Below the pieces are notes generated by a model, which was not told where the DNA came from, searched no databases, and saw only the letters and a program-made list of their open reading frames with translations. A stretch of 56,858 nucleotides of DNA from NCBI GenBank assembly GCA_025362655.1, contig JANYFM010000002.1:1-56858 (forward strand), written 5' to 3'. The DNA is from Hyphomicrobiales bacterium. Lineage in GTDB: Bacteria > Pseudomonadota > Alphaproteobacteria > Rhizobiales > Beijerinckiaceae. The position numbers were made by a program, and so were the translations under genes. Of this stretch, positions 18,774 to 30,426 are shown in pieces. Position 1 is the stretch's first letter. The number at the start of each line of letters is the position of its first letter.

Positions 18774-19550
18774 TGCCGAAACAATGCGTTAGAAACCGCA
18801 ACCAAAAAAAAAGCGCGCATGCCGGGGTTTTGGCTGAAACGGCAGCGCTGCCGTGGACAAAACCGCTTGCGCGGGTGAACCGCTTCCCGCAAATTGGCTT
18901 CACTGAACCACGGGACGAAACCACTCACACAGGCGCTTCGCGATTTACCGCAGTGACTTATTTTTGCAGCGGGGACACGTCTATGTTCGCGGCAGAGACT
19001 GAACTCAAGAAACTGAACTCAACGGCGCCCATTTTGAACCAGCGCAATTCCTTCGCCAGTCGAAAAACACTTGGGCTCCCGCGCGGCATCCGCAACGCGG
19101 CGGGCAATCCGGACGGCGAAATGGAAAAGCGAAGTTTGACCTACGATTTTTTTCTCACGCGTTAATTTGCATCCGGGCCTGATCCCGACTGGAAATCTTG
19201 ATCACTCAAATAAGGCGCTTATGGGCAGCGCGCGGGGGTACTATGTCTGAAGCTATTTTTTCAAGGGCAAACTCTGCCGGCTGGCCGCGGCGCCGTCAAA
19301 GGCCGCGTATCGAATTGCCGCCGCGCCAGGCGCGCGGCGCGAAGACAAACCGCTATCGAGCCGGCTGACGCCCGCGCCGCAGCGGCGCAGGCCCTGTCCA
19401 AAATTATTAGAGACCTTCGAACCGCGGCCCGGCAAGGCCAGCGCTTTCTTTGCCGCGCCGCCGCTGTTTCCCGCACTCTTGCCATTGGCTCATCCCATGC
19501 TCAGCGCCGCCGTCCAATTCAAAATGCCCTCAACCGGTGGAACCCTTGCC

Positions 19551-21032
19551 ATGTCTGAAAGCGCGGAACGCGAAGTTTTGTGGGAACGGGTCCGGCGCCG
19601 CCTGAAGGCGGAGGTCGGCGAGGCTATTTTCGGCGCCTGGTTTGGACGGCTGGAGCTTGACCGCGTCGAGGGGGGCATTGCGAATTTGTCAGTGCCGACG
19701 AAGTTCCTGAAGAGCTGGATTCAATCGCATTATAATGACCGCATATTCGCGGCGCTCCAATCGGAAATCGCCGCTGTCGCCTCGCTGTCGATCAGCGTGC
19801 GCAACTCGTCGCGGGCTTTCGCGCGCCCCGCCGATGCGGCCGATGCCGCGCCGGCGCGGAACGGTTTCAACGAGGCGCCGCCCGCCTCCTTCAGCTTCCG
19901 CCGCGATGGCGATGCCGCGCCGGACGCATCGCTCAACGGCGGGAGCGCGCAGCCTCCGCGGCCCGGCGTTGTTCACGACGGCGACGGCATGGCTGGCTCG
20001 CCGCTGGAGCGGCGGCTGACTTTCTCCAGCTTTCTTGTCGGCCGCTCCAACCAGTTGGCGCATGCGGCGGCGCAGCGCGTCGCCTCCGCCCCGATCGGCG
20101 AGACGCCGCTGTACAATCCGCTGTTCATTCATGCGGCGGTCGGGCTCGGCAAAACCCATTTGCTGCATTCCATCGCTCACGCCTCGGCGGAGGCCGGCCG
20201 GCGCGTCATTTATCTGACAGCCGAGAAATTCATGTACCGCTTTGTTTTCGCGCTGAAGGCGCAGACGGCGATCGCGTTCAAGGAGCGGCTGCGCGGCATC
20301 GACACGCTGGTCATTGACGATGTGCAGTTCCTCCAGGGAAAATCCATCCAGAATGAATTCTGCCACACGCTGAACGCGCTGATCGATTCAGGCCGGCAGA
20401 TCATCGTCGCCGCCGACCGCCCGCCGGGCGATCTGGAAAGCCTCGATGAGCGCGTGCGATCGCGCCTTTCAGGCGGGCTTTGTGTCGAAATGACATCGCT
20501 CGACGAGCCGCTGCGCCTCAAAATTCTGGAGACGCGGATTGCCGCCGCGCGCGCCGCGCAGCCGGGCTTTGAAGTCGCCCCGGCGATTGTCGCCTATGTG
20601 GCGCGGGCGATTGAAACCAACGGCCGGGACCTCGACGGCGCGGTGAGCCGCCTGCTGGCGCGCGCGACGCTGACCGGCGCCACGCTGACGGTGGAAATGG
20701 CGGAGGACGCCATCCGCGATCTCGTGAGAACGCGCGAGCCCAAACGCGTCAAGATCGAGGACATTCAGAAACTCGTCGCCAGCCACTATAATGTCAGCCG
20801 CGCGGATATTTTGTCATCGCGCCGCACGGCGACCGTGGTGCGCCCGCGCCAGATCGCCATGTATTTGTCGAAGGTGCTGACCCTGCGCTCGCTGCCGGAG
20901 ATCGGCCGCCGTTTCGGCGGGCGCGATCACACAACGGTTTTGCACGCCGTGCGCAAGATCGAGGGCCTGTCGCGCACGGACACGCCGCTCTCGGAGGAGC
21001 TGGAGCTGCTGAAGCGGATGCTTCAGGAATAA
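19551..21032 (+). CDS. dnaA: Chromosomal replication initiator DnaA
   Basis: YNPLFI, GLGKTHL Walker [27 protein letters not shown]; start 19551 chosen on RBS and domain I. Confidence 0.98.
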
Positions 21033-21146
21033 GCGGGAGGAACAGGCGCGGGGACCGGGCGCAAAAAGCGCTGGCTTCGGAAGCCCGGATGTTCTTTAGT
21101 GCCGCCCGGGCGGGAGCCGTCCCACAGGCAGCAGAGAGGAATTTCC

Positions 21147-21812
21147 ATGGGCGAGAGCATCACCTTGACCGCGAGCGACGGCGTAAGCATAGGCGCTTAC
21201 AAGGCGCAACCCTCCGGCAAACCGAAGGGCGGCATTGTCGTCATCCAGGAAATTTTCGGCGTCAATCACCATATCCGCGCCGTGGCGGACCTTTACGCGG
21301 CGCAGGGCTATCTGGCCGTCGCCCCGGCGCTCTATGACCGCGTCGAGCCCAACTTTGAATGCGGCTACGCGCCGGCGGACATTCAGACGGGAGCCGCCAT
21401 CCGCGGCAAAACCGATCATGCCAAGGTCCTGCTGGACCTCGCGGCGGCGGTGAAAGAGGCCGCCAAGGGCGGCAAGGTCGGCGTGGTCGGCTATTGCTGG
21501 GGCGGCACGCTGACCTTCGCGGCGGCCTGCCACATTCCCGGCATCGCGGCGGGCAGCGGTTATTACGGCGGCGGCGTGGTGAACATGGCGGGCGATGCGC
21601 CCAAAGCGCCGGTCATTATGCATTTTGGCGAGACCGATCATTCGATCCCCATGACCGACGTGGAAAAATTCAAAGCGCTGCGGCCGGAGGTTCCGGTGTA
21701 TGTCTATCCCTCCGGCCATGGATTTAATTGCGACGAGCGCGGGGCGTACCATAAGGAATCCGCTGATCTCGCGCGGTCGCGCACGCTGGAATTTTTCGCC
21801 AAACATCTGTGA
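21147..21812 (+). CDS. Dienelactone hydrolase family protein
   Basis: QEIFGVN, GYCWGG, HGFNCD. Confidence 0.93.
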   Translation: MGESITLTASDGVSIGAYKAQPSGKPKGGIVVIQEIFGVNHHIRAVADLYAAQGYLAVAPALYDRVEPNFECGYAPADIQTGAAIRGKTDHAKVLLDLAAAVKEAAKGGKVGVVGYCWGGTLTFAAACHIPGIAAGSGYYGGGVVNMAGDAPKAPVIMHFGETDHSIPMTDVEKFKALRPEVPVYVYPSGHGFNCDERGAYHKESADLARSRTLEFFAKHL

Positions 21813-21824
21813 GGGCGGGCCGGC

Positions 21825-22715
21825 ATGATCGTCGAAAACGAAAAGCAACTGACACAGTTCGCGCTCGACGTGATGGGGCGCACGCCCGACCCGCGGCTGC
21901 GGGAGATCATGACGTCGCTCGTCACGCATCTGCATGGTTTCATCCGAGACACGCGGCTGAGCGAGCGGGAGTTCCAGGACGCCTGCGCGATCATCGCGGA
22001 GATGGGCCAGCGCTCGAATGACACGCATAACGAGGTGGTGCTGATGGCGGGATCGCTGGGCGTCTCCTCGCTGGTGTGCCTGCTGAACAACGGCGATCAC
22101 GGCAACACCGAGACAAACCAGAATCTGCTCGGACCGTTCTGGCGGCTGCATTCGCCGCGCACGGAAAACGGCGGCAGCATTCTGCGCTGCCCGACGCCGG
22201 GCGTGCCGATGTTCGTTAAAGCGCGTTTCACGGATACGTCCGACAGGCCGGTCGCCGGCGCGGAGGTCGATGTCTGGCAATCCAATGACGAGGGCTTCTA
22301 CGAAAACCAGGATGAGAAACAGGCGGACATGAATCTGCGCGGCAAATTCACCAGCGACGCGGACGGCATGGTATATTTCCGCAGCATCAAGCCGCTCGGC
22401 TATCCGATTCCGACGGAGGGGCCGGTCGGCCGTCTGCTGCGGGCGCAGGAGCGGCATCCCTTCCGTCCGGCGCATCTGCATTTTCTCGCGGCCAAGCCGG
22501 GGCATAAAACGCTGATTTCGCAAATTTACGCCAGCGATGACCCGCGCATCGAGACCGACGCGCAATTCGGCGTGACACGGGCGCTGGTCGCCGATTACGT
22601 CAATCACAAAGACGGGGCGCCGGCGGCGGATATCAAGGGCGAATGGGCATCGCTCGACTACGCTTTCAAAATGGAGGCGGGGGAATCCCGGCTGCCGCGC
22701 CCGCCGATCAAGTGA
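21825..22715 (+). CDS. Intradiol ring-cleavage dioxygenase (catechol/hydroxyquinol 1,2-dioxygenase type)
   Basis: N-terminal dimerisation region (DPRLREIM), LGPF, DVWQ..GFYENQD, GYPIP, RPAHLH Fe ligands. Confidence 0.92.
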   Translation: MIVENEKQLTQFALDVMGRTPDPRLREIMTSLVTHLHGFIRDTRLSEREFQDACAIIAEMGQRSNDTHNEVVLMAGSLGVSSLVCLLNNGDHGNTETNQNLLGPFWRLHSPRTENGGSILRCPTPGVPMFVKARFTDTSDRPVAGAEVDVWQSNDEGFYENQDEKQADMNLRGKFTSDADGMVYFRSIKPLGYPIPTEGPVGRLLRAQERHPFRPAHLHFLAAKPGHKTLISQIYASDDPRIETDAQFGVTRALVADYVNHKDGAPAADIKGEWASLDYAFKMEAGESRLPRPPIK

Positions 22716-23728
22716 GCGGCCTCTCCCTCTCCGTGCTCGACCAATCGCCGGCGCTATCGGGCGCGAGCCAGGCGCTGGCCATCGGCGAAACCATCGAAAT
22801 GGCAAGGTTTTGCGAGGCGCTGGGGTACAAGCGCTTCTGGGTCAGCGAGCATCATGGCTCGCAGACCATCGTTGGATCGGCGCCGGAGATACTCGTTGGC
22901 GCCATTGCCGCGCAAACCACGCTCATCCGCGTGGGAACGGCGGGCATCATGCTGCCGCATTACGCGCCGCTGAAAATCGCCGAGCAGTTTCGCGTGCTGG
23001 AGGCGATCGCGCCTGGGCGGATTGATTTGGGCCTCGGGCGCGCGCCGGGCGGCGATGGCTTCACATCCTTCGCGCTCAATCCCGGCGGGGACCGGGCGGT
23101 GGAGCGTTTTCCCGCCGATGTTCGCGACATCGTGGCTTGGACCTCGGACGCGCCGCTGCCGCCAGGGCATCCGCTGGCTTCCGTAAAAGTCACGCCGCAA
23201 ACGCCGGGCGCGCCGGAAGTGTTTGTTCTGGGCTCTTCGGATTATGGCGCGCAGGTGGCCGCCTATCTCGGGCTGCCCTTTTGTTTCGCCGCGTTCATCA
23301 GCGAGCGCGGCACCGGACCGGCGCTGGATATATACCGAAGCGGGTACCGGCCCAGCGCCCGGCATCCTGAGCCGCTGGCGATGGCCTGCGTTTTCGCGCT
23401 GGCGGCGGATACGCGGGCGGAGGCGCTGAGGATTTTCGCGACCCGCGCGCGGGCCCGGCTCAACCGCGATCTTGGGGTGCGCACGGCCCTGCTGTCGCCT
23501 GATGACGCCATGGCCGGGGCCAGCGCCGCAGAGCGGGCCCGGGCCGAGAGGCTGGCGGACGAAGCGTTTTTGGGCGATGGGCCTGAATGCGCGGACAAGC
23601 TCCGGGCGTTTGCGCGCGAACATGGCGTGGCGGAACTGGCGATTCTCACACACACTTACGATATCGCGGACCGCAAACGCTCGTTCGCCCTGTTGGCCGG
23701 GGAGTTTGGCTTGGCCGGCGCGAAGTGA
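22712..23728 (+). CDS. LLM-class flavin-dependent oxidoreductase (luciferase-like)
   Basis: SVLDQS, WVSEHH, MLPHY, GRIDLGLGRAPG; GTGA overlap. Confidence 0.92.
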   Translation: MSGLSLSVLDQSPALSGASQALAIGETIEMARFCEALGYKRFWVSEHHGSQTIVGSAPEILVGAIAAQTTLIRVGTAGIMLPHYAPLKIAEQFRVLEAIAPGRIDLGLGRAPGGDGFTSFALNPGGDRAVERFPADVRDIVAWTSDAPLPPGHPLASVKVTPQTPGAPEVFVLGSSDYGAQVAAYLGLPFCFAAFISERGTGPALDIYRSGYRPSARHPEPLAMACVFALAADTRAEALRIFATRARARLNRDLGVRTALLSPDDAMAGASAAERARAERLADEAFLGDGPECADKLRAFAREHGVAELAILTHTYDIADRKRSFALLAGEFGLAGAK

Positions 23729-23782: not shown

Positions 23783-23859
23783 GCGCCCGTAGCTCAGCTG
23801 GATAGAGCGTTGCCCTCCGAAGGCAAAGGTCAGGGGTTCGAATCCCTTCGGGCGCGCCA
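23783..23859 (+). tRNA. tRNA-Arg (anticodon CCG)
   Basis: GCGCCCG/CGGGCGC acceptor stem, AGCTCAGCTGGATAGAGC D-arm, TTGCC-ctCCGaa-GGCAA anticodon arm, GGTTCGAATC, encoded CCA. Confidence 0.97.
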
Positions 23860-25626: not shown

Positions 25627-26610
25627 ATGCTCAACCGCAGGCAATTTGTGCGCGCAGCCGCGGCAACCTCGGCGCTCACGCCGGTGCTTTCAACGGATGC
25701 GTCCGCGCAAGCCTATCCCGATCACGAAATTCATTCGATCGGCATGTTCCCGGCCGGGTCCGGCGCGGATGTCATGGTCCGCTATTTCTCCAACAAGCTT
25801 GCCGAGATGACCGGCAAGACAGTTGTCGTCGAGAACAAGGCGGGCGCCTTCGGCAATATCGCGACATCCTATGTGGCCCGCTCAAAGCCGGATGGCTACA
25901 CGCTCTACATCGCGCCGGGAAGCTCGGTGCTGGCCGCCGCGCCGTCGCTGTTCAAGTCGCTCAACTATGATCCGATCAATGATTTTGAGCATATCACGAC
26001 GCTTGTCAAAGTGACGTTCATTCAGATCGTTGCCGGCAACAGCCCGTATAAAACCGCGGCGGACCTGTCGAAATTTCTCAAGGAGAAGGGCGACACAGCG
26101 TCTTATGGCTCTGTCGCCAACACGGGTCTTGTGGCGAGCGAGCTGTACAAACAGTCGGCGGGGCTAAAGACGGTCGAGGTGAAATACAAAGAGGTGCAGG
26201 CGATGCTCGTCGATCTGCTGGCGGGCGCCATCGCCTTCTGCCACATCGACGTGGCGAGTGTGCTTGGGCAGCTTCAGGACGGCGCGGTGCGCGCGGTTTC
26301 AACCTCATCAACCCAGCGCATCCGGGCGCTGCCGGATGTGCCGAGCGCGCTCGAAGCGGGGATCCCCAATCTGGACCTCGTCGCGTGGTGGTCCGTGCAT
26401 GTGCCCAAGGGCACGCCAAAAGCCATCACGGATCAGCTTGAGGTCTGGTTCAACAAAATCGCCTCGGATGAGGTCGTCGGCAAATGGGTCGTCAACATCG
26501 GCTTTGATCCCTACCCCGGCAATTCGAAACTGGTGCGGGAGCTGCTGGAGAAAGACACCAAGGCCTGGGCGGACTATGTGAAGCTCGCGAATATTCCGCC
26601 GATCGGGTAA
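25627..26610 (+). CDS. Bug/TctC tripartite tricarboxylate transporter solute-binding protein
   Basis: Tat-like NRRQF leader, FPAGSGAD, VVVENKAGA, PDGYTL, PKGTP. Confidence 0.9.
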   Translation: MLNRRQFVRAAAATSALTPVLSTDASAQAYPDHEIHSIGMFPAGSGADVMVRYFSNKLAEMTGKTVVVENKAGAFGNIATSYVARSKPDGYTLYIAPGSSVLAAAPSLFKSLNYDPINDFEHITTLVKVTFIQIVAGNSPYKTAADLSKFLKEKGDTASYGSVANTGLVASELYKQSAGLKTVEVKYKEVQAMLVDLLAGAIAFCHIDVASVLGQLQDGAVRAVSTSSTQRIRALPDVPSALEAGIPNLDLVAWWSVHVPKGTPKAITDQLEVWFNKIASDEVVGKWVVNIGFDPYPGNSKLVRELLEKDTKAWADYVKLANIPPIG

Positions 26611-26648
26611 GAGCCGGCCGGAGGGCCGCCGCGGCCAGCGCTTTGCCT

Positions 26649-26664
26649 TGGCCCAAGATTTGCT
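26649..26664 (+). promoter_or_regulatory. Putative sigma54 (-24/-12) promoter
   Basis: TGGCCCA-agat-TTGCT matches TGGCACG-N4-TTGCW with exact GG-N10-GC spacing. Confidence 0.6.
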
Positions 26665-26713
26665 CGACAAGACTTGCTCGACAAGACTTGCTCAACAAGA
26701 TTTGCTCGACAAG
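26654..26713. repeat. 14-bp tandem repeat, CAAGA(T/C)TTGCTC(G/A)A x4 plus a partial copy
   Basis: Units start at 26654, 26668, 26682, 26696 and 26710. Confidence 0.93.
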
Positions 26714-26747: not shown

Positions 26748-27860
26748 TTGACCGATCTCGACCAAGTCACTTTGCGGCGGCGCGGCGCCGGCCTGATTGG
26801 CTATGATCCCGCCAACTCCGCCGGCGGTTACACGCTGATCGCCCCGCAGACCGATGGCGGGCGCGTGACATTGATCGATATGGAGGGCGCGCCCGTCCAT
26901 GTCTGGCAAATGCCGCAGAGGCCTGGCCGCCATGCGGTGCTGCTGCCAAATGGAAATCTCGGTTACAACGGCAACCATCCGGATTCGCCCGACCTCTATC
27001 TGGCTTGGTCGATGTGGCACGGCGGCGCGTTTTCCGAGGTTACGCCGGCGGGAAAAACCGTCTGGGAATTCACTGACCTCACCCACCATCACGACGCGCA
27101 GTGGCTGGCCAACGGGAACCTGCTTTATTGCTCGCTGGAGCCGCTGCCCAAAGATTTCGCGCGGCGCGTCCTTGGCGGCAGCCCGGCGAACGATTTGGCG
27201 GACGGGACGGTCTACGGCGACGTCATCAAAGAAGTGAACCGCAAAGGCGACCTGGTATGGCAATGGAAAGCCCACGAGCATTTGCGGCCTGAGGATCACC
27301 CGATCCATCCGTTTTTCGACCGCTATCATTGGCCGATGATCAACGGTTTGTGCGCGACGGCCGGCGGGCTCGTGCTGATGAGCCTGCGCACGACATCCGG
27401 CGTCATCGGCGTCGAGCGGTCGTCGGGCGCTGTTAAGCTGCGCCTTCATCATCCGCTGGTTTCACAGCAGCATGCGCCCTCGGAGCTTGCCGGCGGCAAC
27501 ATTCTGATTTTTGACAATGGCAATTTCCGGCCCGGCGTTTCGACGCCCTATTCGCGCGTCATCGAGGTTGACCCGGCGACCGGGGAAGCCGCGTGGATCT
27601 ATGCCGATCCGCACAAGCCCGCGTTTTTCTCCTCCTACATGGGCGGCGCCGAGCGATTGGCGAACGGCAACACGCACATCACGGAATCAACCACCGGGCG
27701 GCTGTTTGAGGTGACGAGGGACGGCGCCGTTGTATGGGAATATGTGATCCCGCAATTCGCCGAATATCCGGAGGCCGCGGCGCGGCGGACCGGCGGCGGC
27801 ATGACCAACAGTGTTTTCAAAACATTCCGCTACCAGAAATCGCAGCTGCCATGGCTGTGA
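26748..27860 (+). CDS. Arylsulfotransferase (ASST)-family beta-propeller protein, no signal peptide
   Basis: HHHDA..NGN, MSLR, QQHAP..ILIFDNG, YSRVIE, ERLANGNTHITE; TTG start after GGAGG. Confidence 0.85.
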   Translation: MTDLDQVTLRRRGAGLIGYDPANSAGGYTLIAPQTDGGRVTLIDMEGAPVHVWQMPQRPGRHAVLLPNGNLGYNGNHPDSPDLYLAWSMWHGGAFSEVTPAGKTVWEFTDLTHHHDAQWLANGNLLYCSLEPLPKDFARRVLGGSPANDLADGTVYGDVIKEVNRKGDLVWQWKAHEHLRPEDHPIHPFFDRYHWPMINGLCATAGGLVLMSLRTTSGVIGVERSSGAVKLRLHHPLVSQQHAPSELAGGNILIFDNGNFRPGVSTPYSRVIEVDPATGEAAWIYADPHKPAFFSSYMGGAERLANGNTHITESTTGRLFEVTRDGAVVWEYVIPQFAEYPEAAARRTGGGMTNSVFKTFRYQKSQLPWL

Positions 27861-27879
27861 AACACGAAGGCATTTGCTG

Positions 27880-28680
27880 ATGCCGGGCCCGGCGGCCGTC
27901 TTCGCGGGTTCCCGGGATTCCTGGGTTGCGCGCGCGCTTGAGCCGCTGACCCCGCTGCTGTCGTTCGCCATGGTGCTTGCCGTCTGGTCGCTGGTCTGCC
28001 TTTCGGGAATCGTTTCCGACTCGGTGTTTCCGCCGCCCTGGCAGGCGTGGGAGGCGGCGGTGGAACTGTATCAGACCGGTGTCCTCGCATCCGATTTCGC
28101 GGCATCCATATCGCGGGCGGCGATAGGATTCGCGATTGGCGCGACGCTGGGAATCGCGACGGGGCTGCTGACCGGACGCACCGCTCTGTTCAGTCTTCTG
28201 CTGAACCCGTTTCTGCGGGTGATGCGCCCGATCCCCGCCATCGCGCTGGTTCCCGTTGCCATCGTCTGGTTCGGCATCGGCGAGGGATCCAAATATTTTT
28301 TGATTTCCTACACGGTGTTTCTGACCGTCTGGTTCAACACGCATCACGGCATGGAATATGTTCCCGACATCTACATACGCGCGTCGCGCTGCCTTGGCGC
28401 GCCGCGCTGGCGGGAGTTTTGCACCGTCACCATCCCGGCGGCGGCGCCGCATATTCTCGGCGGCATCCGGCTGGGCGTCGCGCTGGCGCTGCTCAGTCTT
28501 GTGGCGGCGGAATTGAGCGGCGCGACCTCGGGCATCGGCTACCGCCTGCAGGAGGCGCGCCAGTATATCCGCACCGACCGGATGTTCGCGCTGCTGATCG
28601 AATTGGGATTGCTGGGCGCGGGCCTTGACTGGATCGTCAATCAGATCGGCCGGCGCATCGTGCATTGGGAGCAGGCGTGA
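27880..28680 (+). CDS. ABC permease, SsuC/TauC/NitT type
   Basis: FPPP, RPIPAIAL, EAA-like loop ASRCLGA, LVAAE. Confidence 0.92.
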   Translation: MPGPAAVFAGSRDSWVARALEPLTPLLSFAMVLAVWSLVCLSGIVSDSVFPPPWQAWEAAVELYQTGVLASDFAASISRAAIGFAIGATLGIATGLLTGRTALFSLLLNPFLRVMRPIPAIALVPVAIVWFGIGEGSKYFLISYTVFLTVWFNTHHGMEYVPDIYIRASRCLGAPRWREFCTVTIPAAAPHILGGIRLGVALALLSLVAAELSGATSGIGYRLQEARQYIRTDRMFALLIELGLLGAGLDWIVNQIGRRIVHWEQA

Positions 28681-29444
28681 GCGGACGCGTGGAAATTCAA
28701 GACCTTTCCATCTCGTTCCATGGGCGCGGCGGCGCGACGCAGGCGCTGGCGCCGACGAATCTAACGCTGGAGCCTGGAACTTTTACCGCGCTGATTGGCC
28801 CGTCCGGCTGCGGCAAATCAACAATTCTCAATGCGGTCGCCGGCTTTATCGCGCCGACAGCGGGGAAAATTCTCATCGATGGAAAGCGCATTGGGGGCCC
28901 CAATCCCGGTGTGGGCGTGATATTCCAGCAATATGCGCTGTTTCCCTGGCTCACCGCGCTGAGCAATGTGAAGTTTGCGTTGAAGCGGCTGAGCCTGCCG
29001 AAGGGCGAGATGGAAAGCCGCGCGATGGATTGTCTCGCCGAGGTCGGGCTTGCCGACGCCGGCGGCAAATATCCAGGACAGCTGTCGGGCGGAATGAAAC
29101 AGCGCGTCGCCATCGCGCGCACGCTGGCCGGCGAGCCCGGCGTGCTGCTGATGGACGAGCCGTTCGGCGCGCTGGACGCGCAGACGCGGCTCAGCATGCA
29201 TGAATTGCTGCTGCGCATTTGGGACAGGCGCAAGGCGACAATCCTTTTCGTCACCCACGATGTTGATGAGGCGCTGGCGCTGGCGGATATCGTTCACGTC
29301 ATGGCGTCCGCGCCGGGACGGGTGATTGCGACCCATGTTCTCGATGCGCCGAGGCCGCGGGCCGCCTCGAAATTCGACACAACGTTTCCCGGTTTGCGGG
29401 AATCCATTCTCGGTTTGCTCAGACCCGCCGTTTCCACGCAATGA
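28677..29444 (+). CDS. ABC ATP-binding protein, SsuB/TauB type
   Basis: GPSGCGKS, LSGGMKQR, LLMDEPFGALD, VTHD. Confidence 0.95.
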   Translation: MSGRVEIQDLSISFHGRGGATQALAPTNLTLEPGTFTALIGPSGCGKSTILNAVAGFIAPTAGKILIDGKRIGGPNPGVGVIFQQYALFPWLTALSNVKFALKRLSLPKGEMESRAMDCLAEVGLADAGGKYPGQLSGGMKQRVAIARTLAGEPGVLLMDEPFGALDAQTRLSMHELLLRIWDRRKATILFVTHDVDEALALADIVHVMASAPGRVIATHVLDAPRPRAASKFDTTFPGLRESILGLLRPAVSTQ

Positions 29445-29457
29445 AAGGATCGAACCC

Positions 29458-30426
29458 ATGAAAAACCAGCTTTGCCTATGTGTCCTCGCCGCGCTTGCGT
29501 GCGCGCCCGCCGGCGCAGCCGATCTCGCGCCCGTCACGCTTGCCTGGGCGCCCAATCCGCAAACGCCCCAGATTGATGTCGCGATAGCCAGAGGGTTTTT
29601 CCGCGACGCGGGCCTCGACGTGAAAACAGTGTCATTCCCAACGGGCAGAGAGGCTTTCGAAGCGCTCGCGGGCGGACAGGTGGATATGGCCTTCATGGCG
29701 GAGCTGCCGGCGACCATTGGCGCACTGCGGGCTCAGCCTTTCGCGGTTGTCGCCGATTTATCGCGTTACCGCGGCAGCCGGCTGATTGCCAATGCCAAGA
29801 CCCTCGATATGAAAACAACAGCGGACGCGGCGGGCAAAAAGGTGGGACTGACGATCGGCGCCAATCTCGATTATTTCACCAGCCGGCTTTTCGCGGCGGC
29901 GAAAATCAATGTGACCATCGTCAATGCCTCGCCGCCTGATCTGCTGCCGGCGCTGCTGCGCGGCGATATCGATATCGCCGTGCCCTTTCCGACTTTTTAT
30001 CCGGCGGCGGCGAAAGCGCTCGGCGAGAACTACCGCGAGGTTTTGCCGGGCGGATACGCGGTGCATAACATCGTCGCGGCATCCTCGCCGTTCATCAAAA
30101 TGAAGCCGGCGGAACTGGAGAAATTCATCGCCGCCCTGGTGAAAGCCGACGCGATTGTGCGCGCCGGGCCCGCCGCCGCGCAGGCGCTGGTGGCCGAAAA
30201 TCTCAAAGGCGCGTTCACGCTCGAATCCGTCACGAAAATGTGGGGCGAGTATGATTTTCACACGGAGCTCGCCGACGATCTCACGGACCTGCTCGTTGAT
30301 CAGGGCGCGTGGCTGATTGAAAAAGGCGCGGTTAAGGGCGCGGCGCCGACAGCGGCGTCCATGCGGCCCTATATCGCCGAGGCCGCGCTGCGCAAAGCCG
30401 ACGCATCGGCTGTTCGCCTGAAGTAA
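29458..30426 (+). CDS. ABC substrate-binding protein, SsuA/TauA type
   Basis: Signal peptide, ARGFFRDAGLDV, GKKVG; completes the ABC operon. Confidence 0.88.
   Translation: MKNQLCLCVLAALACAPAGAADLAPVTLAWAPNPQTPQIDVAIARGFFRDAGLDVKTVSFPTGREAFEALAGGQVDMAFMAELPATIGALRAQPFAVVADLSRYRGSRLIANAKTLDMKTTADAAGKKVGLTIGANLDYFTSRLFAAAKINVTIVNASPPDLLPALLRGDIDIAVPFPTFYPAAAKALGENYREVLPGGYAVHNIVAASSPFIKMKPAELEKFIAALVKADAIVRAGPAAAQALVAENLKGAFTLESVTKMWGEYDFHTELADDLTDLLVDQGAWLIEKGAVKGAAPTAASMRPYIAEAALRKADASAVRLK

Follow-up and report, generated by a model that had tools for sequence, protein, structure and literature searches.

An importer-linked clade of arylsulfotransferase-fold enzymes carrying an HWPxxN motif in bacteria and viruses

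Introduction

Among enzymes with the arylsulfotransferase (ASST) fold, two with solved structures provide the nearest points of comparison for the protein considered here: Escherichia coli CFT073 AssT (PDB 3ELQ/3ETS/3ETT) and Streptomyces Cpz4 (PDB 9KF4/9KF6), which sulfates caprazamycin in a biosynthetic pathway. For Desulfitobacterium hafniense ASTB (Dh_ASST_6) and Salmonella St_ASST_5, the available portion of a bioRxiv 2026 preprint (10.64898/2026.10.08.757636) gives a second histidine (His283 and His317, respectively) proposed as the acid/base, His283 being the counterpart of E. coli His356; the available portion of a 2026 review (PMC13426309) describes active-site residues as conserved in all published ASST enzymes. 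Here we describe an ASST-fold enzyme in which this second histidine is replaced, encoded directly 5' of the genes for an ATP-binding cassette (ABC) importer in a Hyphomicrobiales bacterium (GCA_025362655.1, contig JANYFM010000002.1). The stretch analysed, referred to as the window, is 56,858 nucleotides long.

As a system, the closest precedent is the ats-sft cluster of Pseudomonas putida S-313, which Kahnert reportedly described in 2002 as comprising an ABC importer, a LysR regulator, a dioxygenase and an intracellular ASST, AstA; we know of no link between this cluster and nucleobases. The available part of PMC7711191 associates it with the use of sulfate esters and a TonB receptor. A further comparison is offered by the gene sets that accompany xanthine (NMT1) riboswitches, which, in the available text of PMC7373994, bring together NMT1/THI5-like binding proteins, PcbC-like dioxygenases and deaminases and are purine-linked; a search of that text for the term 'sulfotransferase' gave no match.

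Results

Fold and active site

The window enzyme exceeds the cut-offs of two Pfam families of PAPS-independent ASSTs (EC 2.8.2.22; PF05935, 49.8 vs 24.2 bits; PF14269, 34.4 vs 27 bits), matches no NCBIfam model, and returned nothing significant in a PDB search with the single sequence, so that profiles were needed. Its AlphaFold model, built with 119 homologues (mean predicted local distance difference test 93.4), has as its closest solved structure Cpz4 (Z 32.7, root-mean-square deviation 2.8, 316 residues aligned), also the best profile match (E 5e-24), followed by E. coli ASST 3ELQ (Z 28.7, deviation 2.8, 312 aligned), with the next structure at Z 21.8. Cpz4 is ~20% identical and keeps D-Y-V-H-I-N and three histidines, and the window enzyme, at 370 residues, superposes on AssT only from AssT residue 118 onward and lacks the N-terminal sandwich domain.

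Four motifs are present in the translated gene: HHHD (113-116), HWPMIN (194-199), SLR (212-214) and QQH (240-242). A reading made earlier from the sequence alone (the sequence-only reading) had reported three of these as kept, with WPMIN in place of the usual W-x-H-x-N, and had proposed a His-to-Met change relative to E. coli AssT, all of which is borne out. Profile alignment to 3ELQ equates H115 with His252, N199 with Asn358, R214 with Arg374, H242 with His436 and N257 with Asn451, and places M197 at His356 and M298 at Thr501. H194, three residues upstream of M197, occupies the position of E. coli Asn353. Among close homologues (the best 120 of 1896 matches, 63-100% identity), H115, H194, N199, R214, H242 and N257 are invariant (120/120) and H113 is a further conserved histidine; position 197 is Leu in 106, Met in 12 and Tyr in 2, and never His. 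The loss of His356 is thus real and clade-wide, so the "altered His motif" of the sequence-only reading stands in that respect, although it overlooked the invariant His194, and Met is the minority residue at position 197.

The sulfo-histidine position and the pocket Asn and Arg are shared with Dh_ASST_6 and St_ASST_5, and the second histidine that both of these keep, going by the available part of the preprint, is missing here. Since position 197 is Met in the window enzyme and is never His in the 120 homologues or in the 110 bacterial loci described below, we do not file the enzyme as a canonical ASST. It is ASST-like in fold and probably in the first half-reaction, and belongs to a divergent clade of the family. 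His194 probably compensates for the lost His356, and we infer that the acid/base role moved from the His356 position to H194 in this clade.

The HWPxxN clade

The motif HWP[L/M/Y/F]xN occurs in 110/110 bacterial loci surveyed (80 metagenome loci fetched with patterns free of the HWPxxN motif; two other fetches, one of bacterial loci and one of the viral loci, used a motif-containing pattern), whereas the commonest form among more distant representatives is [E/D]WxHxN. In a FastTree phylogeny of 110 sequences, to which 28 clade members were added by hand, the window enzyme falls in a 31-tip clade with support 0.967, in 30 tips of which His stands at 194 but is absent from 197, the remaining tip being misaligned. 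Across all 110 tips, His is found at 194 only in 33 (3 of which look misaligned), at 197 only in 63, at both in 1 and at neither in 13. His197 is likewise absent from about nine proteins that fall elsewhere in the tree, and it is the swap to H194, not the loss of His197, that is unique to the clade. On this phylogenetic evidence the HWPxxN proteins form one clade.

The clade is rare, being found in 3/400 genomes of the phylum, 1/36 genomes of the same genus at high identity, and 1/201 and 3/88 genomes of two other groups (one of the latter three being a WxHxN protein), with the centre genome counted in every case. Homologues in cultured bacteria include those of Paraburkholderia phytofirmans PsJN (ACD19001.1) and Variovorax paradoxus (AGU53393.1). 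Two same-genus genomes carry ASST-like genes of 35% identity (L141:7243-8397 and L142:7012-8064) near amidohydrolase, CMD, IclR and Rieske oxygenase genes, and a search with the clade's importer seeds found no importer near either. Among look-alikes further afield, one Atlas cluster (rank 2) is 64% eukaryotic, mostly Ascomycota; some distant relatives of 760-815 residues carry two ASST domains in tandem, in some cases with degenerate catalytic motifs, and a related HWPWIS protein of the rotifer Adineta ricciae is fused to a pyridoxal phosphate-dependent decarboxylase. We considered the tandem repeats and the decarboxylase fusion as functional clues and found them uninformative.

We found no published description of the clade, including by the accession numbers of three members, in a search of literature other than subscription papers and bioRxiv supplements. 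A 22-clade ASST phylogeny that may delimit it is cited as in preparation in a source available in part. The enzyme-importer system described below is real, conserved and, as the sequence-only reading supposed, apparently uncharacterised.

Importer linkage and importer type

We surveyed 110 bacterial loci, leaving aside three from the genome itself and the two of 35% identity; 77 have enough flank to assess neighbours, and in 76 of these an importer lies within ~4.5 kb of the enzyme gene. The linkage proposed from the single locus is therefore conserved. The importers are of several kinds: NitT/TauT-type ABC transporters (46), NCS2 permeases of the xanthine/uracil type (13), TctC proteins (12) and lone binding proteins (5). 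By comparison, an NMT1 binding protein or NCS2 permease occurs in 1% of random windows of this genome, or 14% if TctC is included. The bacterial loci are not independent, 66/110 belonging to one 80% identity group; counted by such groups, the importer is kept in 19/20. A PcbC-like 2-oxoglutarate (2OG) oxygenase is present at 22/77 loci and in 7/20 groups, and LysR (46) or LacI (19) regulators, mostly divergent, lie near the enzyme gene. Minimal loci consist of regulator, enzyme and importer.

The linked binding proteins form three groups: 30 THI5-like sequences, 24 like that of the window, and 8 SsuA-like sequences, with one group scoring above the SsuA cut-off. For the window's group, TauA and SsuA rank first with ThiY and THI5 close behind, and the fold does not fix the ligand. 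The label "sulfonate-type" previously given to the window importer holds at the level of family and fold, in that its binding protein shares the TauA/SsuA-type fold, but by sequence scores the importer misses the NCBIfam cut-offs of the SsuABC/TauABC families (SsuA_fam 90.9 vs 163.5, SsuC 131.9 vs 347, TauC 130.2 vs 342), with all four SsuA/TauA matches of the binding protein falling below threshold. The linked NCS2 permeases have PbuX as their best model, below its cut-off, and 14/15 of those long enough keep QH and ENxG, which we take to be nucleobase-site motifs, the remaining one having DNxG.

Genes near the bacterial loci

Neighbouring genes suggest two metabolic contexts. For the linked oxygenases, which come from several groups <45% identical to one another, the best PDB match is thymine dioxygenase (E 2e-46), and an adenosine deaminase gene is present in loci L105-L107. 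Other loci lie among msuE, SfnB-like, luciferase-like monooxygenase (LLM), TauD, cysteine synthase and TonB genes, and scores against CysB-family models are weak for the linked LysR regulators. Thiamine salvage was considered on account of the THI5-like binding proteins and set aside, as no thiamine genes occur among the scanned neighbours; nor do phosphate-scavenging genes recur among these proteins. In the genome of the window, seeds from clade-linked loci (E 1e-20) gave no PcbC-like oxygenase or NCS2 match; the genome holds four TauD-like genes.

Viral copies

Clade members are also encoded at 25 IMG/VR loci, together with an ABC ATPase and permease (22), a binding protein (21), a 2OG oxygenase (19), a phosphoribosyltransferase (19), a BMP purine-type binding protein (10), phosphoribosyl pyrophosphate synthetase (7) and GMP reductase (5). 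Five viral copies nest within the HWPxxN clade in the FastTree phylogeny. Two viral copies share 58-60% identity with a copy from the SAR324 phylum and 55-59% with Rhodobacteraceae and Pantoea copies. The viral contigs (L116-L140) additionally carry GTP cyclohydrolase I/QueE-like, S-adenosylmethionine synthetase and isocitrate lyase genes alongside those for purine salvage, importer and oxygenase.

Cellular location

Unlike E. coli AssT, the window enzyme has no detectable signal peptide and is linked to importers. At its N-terminus, hydropathy over 11 residues peaks at 0.6, whereas the binding protein reaches 2.94, and a hydropathy scan found no hydrophobic N-terminal leader in it or in the 120 homologues. 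We also considered an in-frame extension to a TTG at 26643 as an upstream signal peptide and rejected it, as it spans a 14-bp repeat array and is not hydrophobic (1.05). The enzyme is thus predicted to be cytoplasmic, in keeping with what had been read from the sequence. An invariant, faintly twin-arginine translocation (Tat)-like pair (R10-R11) is present, and a rough Tat rule flags 25/120 homologues, the window enzyme not among them; hydropathy was low for a genuine Tat control too, so this measure alone does not exclude Tat export. The match of the model to the propellers of Cpz4 and E. coli ASST already takes in residue 13 and all that follow it, evidence against a leader that is cleaved off. 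For an ASST, the lack of a signal peptide is nothing out of the ordinary, the available part of PMC10932419 reporting members both with and without one.

Gene order at the locus

The enzyme gene heads a block of four genes (Table 1) separated by a 19-base gap, a 4-base overlap and a 13-base gap, spacing that fits an operon. The permease, ATPase and binding protein genes had already been placed directly 3' of the ASST-like gene, and their coordinates and Pfam/NCBIfam matches agree; the description of that gene as "fused" with the importer does not hold, as the four genes are separate and adjacent. Two sequencing runs from the same study yielded contigs that together cover the block, none of them spanning it whole; they differ from it at single positions only, with no indels listed. 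The repeat array 5' of the enzyme gene has no second example in this genome, in which the unit by itself matches 32 times (<=2 mismatches), and occupies the site at which relatives usually carry a divergent LacI/LysR gene. A promoter scan found no sigma-70 site upstream of the enzyme gene, with counts near those of shuffles. We considered the upstream TctC protein as a component of the system and rejected it as a likely incidental neighbour, as it shares 28-34% identity with the TctC proteins linked to the clade and the genome gives 42 tblastn matches to TctC.

Table 1. Features of the window in and around the four-gene block.
Feature	Position	Strand	Basis or remark
ASST-fold beta-propeller enzyme, 370 residues, HWPxxN clade	26748..27860	+	TTG start after GGAGG; Pfam, profile alignments, model
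ABC permease, NitT/TauT type	27880..28680	+	PF00528
ABC ATPase, NitT/TauT type	28677..29444	+	start overlaps permease stop (GTGA)
Substrate-binding protein with signal peptide, NMT1/SsuA/TauA fold	29458..30426	+	in 24-sequence group linked to enzyme clade
Four head-to-tail copies of a 14-bp unit	26654..26709	none	5' of enzyme gene
TctC/Bug binding protein	25627..26610	+	upstream of enzyme gene; probably incidental neighbour
dnaA-like open reading frame	19479-21032		named from its motif
Dienelactone hydrolase, intradiol dioxygenase and LLM genes	21114-23728
tRNA	23783-23856

Discussion

The reading that best accommodates these observations, to which we give a probability of roughly 40%, is that a nucleobase-like anion is imported and then stripped of a sulfuryl group, which passes via sulfo-His242 to water, leaving sulfate and the base. 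The TauA/SsuA-fold binding protein and its ABC transporter would bring in the compound; H115, N199, R214 and N257 would hold the sulfuryl group while H242 takes it as sulfo-histidine, as His436 does in E. coli. H194 would assume the acid/base role, a change that may fit a leaving group of another shape or of greater acidity and that is suggested by the replacement of His356 by a hydrophobic residue and of the Glu/Asp of sister proteins by His194. Water rather than a phenol would then act as acceptor, yielding sulfate as a sulfur source and a free base for salvage or purine breakdown.

Sulfuryl chemistry is argued for by the retention of the pocket and nucleophile residues. As loci comprising regulator, enzyme and importer exist, a single step should bring benefit, which favours hydrolysis; acceptor-free hydrolysis has been reported, in sources available in part, for St_ASST_5 and an Aspergillus enzyme. 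With NCS2, THI5-like, SsuA/TauA-like and TctC proteins all linked to the clade, the compound is most simply a small ring with an acid group, and a sulfated or sulfonated nucleobase would join the sulfur and nucleobase contexts. Thio-base oxidation products, bisulfite adducts and O- or N-sulfates of bases are candidates, and a C-sulfonate would need chemistry other than the sulfo-histidine route. The import-then-desulfate pathway proposed in the sequence-only reading is compatible with the sulfuryl-binding residues that are kept and with the importer linkage; it overlooked His194, and the genes nearby favour nucleobase-like substrates no less than ordinary aryl sulfates.

In favour of nucleobase-sulfate hydrolysis, nucleobase markers lie near 24/57 loci, vs 1.25% of random windows in this genome, and sulfur-scavenging markers near 13/57, vs 4.5%. 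Several observations weigh against it. These figures come from markers picked after the loci had been seen, from related loci and from a control of one genome; the two kinds coincide at only 2 loci, with 22 having nucleobase markers only, 11 sulfur markers only and 22 neither. Neither kind occurs in the window block, whose binding protein ranks nearest to TauA/SsuA. Unlike the xanthine riboswitch gene sets, the window and 22 further loci gave no match at gathering score to the xanthine (NMT1-motif) riboswitch or another relevant family in Rfam 15, which presumably holds the NMT1-motif family, the only matches in these 23 sources being one tRNA and one small RNA. No importer is seen at five Anaerolineales loci, of which L017 alone is flanked by enough sequence. 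In viruses, metabolic genes cluster whatever their pathway, and we know of no abundant natural sulfated nucleobase.

A sulfur-free reaction on a modified nucleobase, for which the ASST scaffold would have been put to new use, perhaps as a metal-dependent hydrolase or as a lyase acting after a 2OG dioxygenase, with H113, H115, H194 and H242 as ligands or bases, seems to us unlikely. It would account for the loss of His356, the additional conserved H113 and H194, the diversity of linked oxygenases, and the NCS2 permeases, adenosine deaminase and viral purine salvage genes, and PAL, a lyase rich in histidine, also matches the model as a propeller (Z 18.3); set against this, all other sulfuryl-binding residues are invariant, sulfur-scavenging genes and a binding protein group above the SsuA cut-off are found at clade loci, and 55/77 loci have no oxygenase.

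Less likely again is an ordinary intracellular ASST that desulfurises imported aryl or alkyl sulfate esters, with H194 replacing His356. The P. putida S-313 ats-sft cluster, as documented in the available part of PMC7711191, provides a precedent, and the sulfur-related neighbours from msuE to TonB, as well as a window binding protein closest to TauA/SsuA, are what such an enzyme would be expected to accompany; it leaves unexplained the NCS2 permeases, the 30 THI5-like binding proteins, the deaminase and the viral purine context, and sits poorly with the weak scores of the LysR regulators against CysB-family models.

A pocket that binds phosphate, with the enzyme acting by way of phospho-histidine as a phosphatase or phosphotransferase on a nucleotide-like or phosphoramidate compound, is improbable: His/Arg/Asn pockets can bind either oxyanion and the viral context is one of nucleotide salvage, yet the scanned neighbours include sulfur genes and no recurrent phosphate-scavenging genes, and NCS2 permeases carry bases, not nucleotides, in the available part of PMC6308229. 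Most improbable is that the protein is a catalytically dead ligand trap or is exported via its N-terminal RR, for although one catalytic His is lost, R10-R11 is invariant and the Tat rule and hydropathy leave room for export, the nucleophile and oxyanion residues are invariant, the superposition from residue 13 leaves no cleavable leader, and viral and Chloroflexi copies share the same N-terminus.

Returning to nucleobase-sulfate hydrolysis, a broader proposal for the clade is rather doubtful at present: a sulfo-histidine hydrolase built on the ASST scaffold with one histidine moved, harvesting an unrecognised pool of sulfated or sulfonated nucleobases, which bacteria would use for sulfur or base salvage and phages with a full importer for nucleotide synthesis. 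Few natural substrates of ASST-family proteins are known, and the tight linkage to five kinds of importer offers a practical route to that of this clade. As a natural variant without the proposed acid/base histidine, the clade also allows a direct test of the two-histidine mechanism. If nucleobase-sulfate hydrolysis is correct, the clade would bring to light a sulfatase chemistry not seen before, and would tie organic sulfur to nucleobase salvage in a way that has been overlooked and that viruses exploit too.

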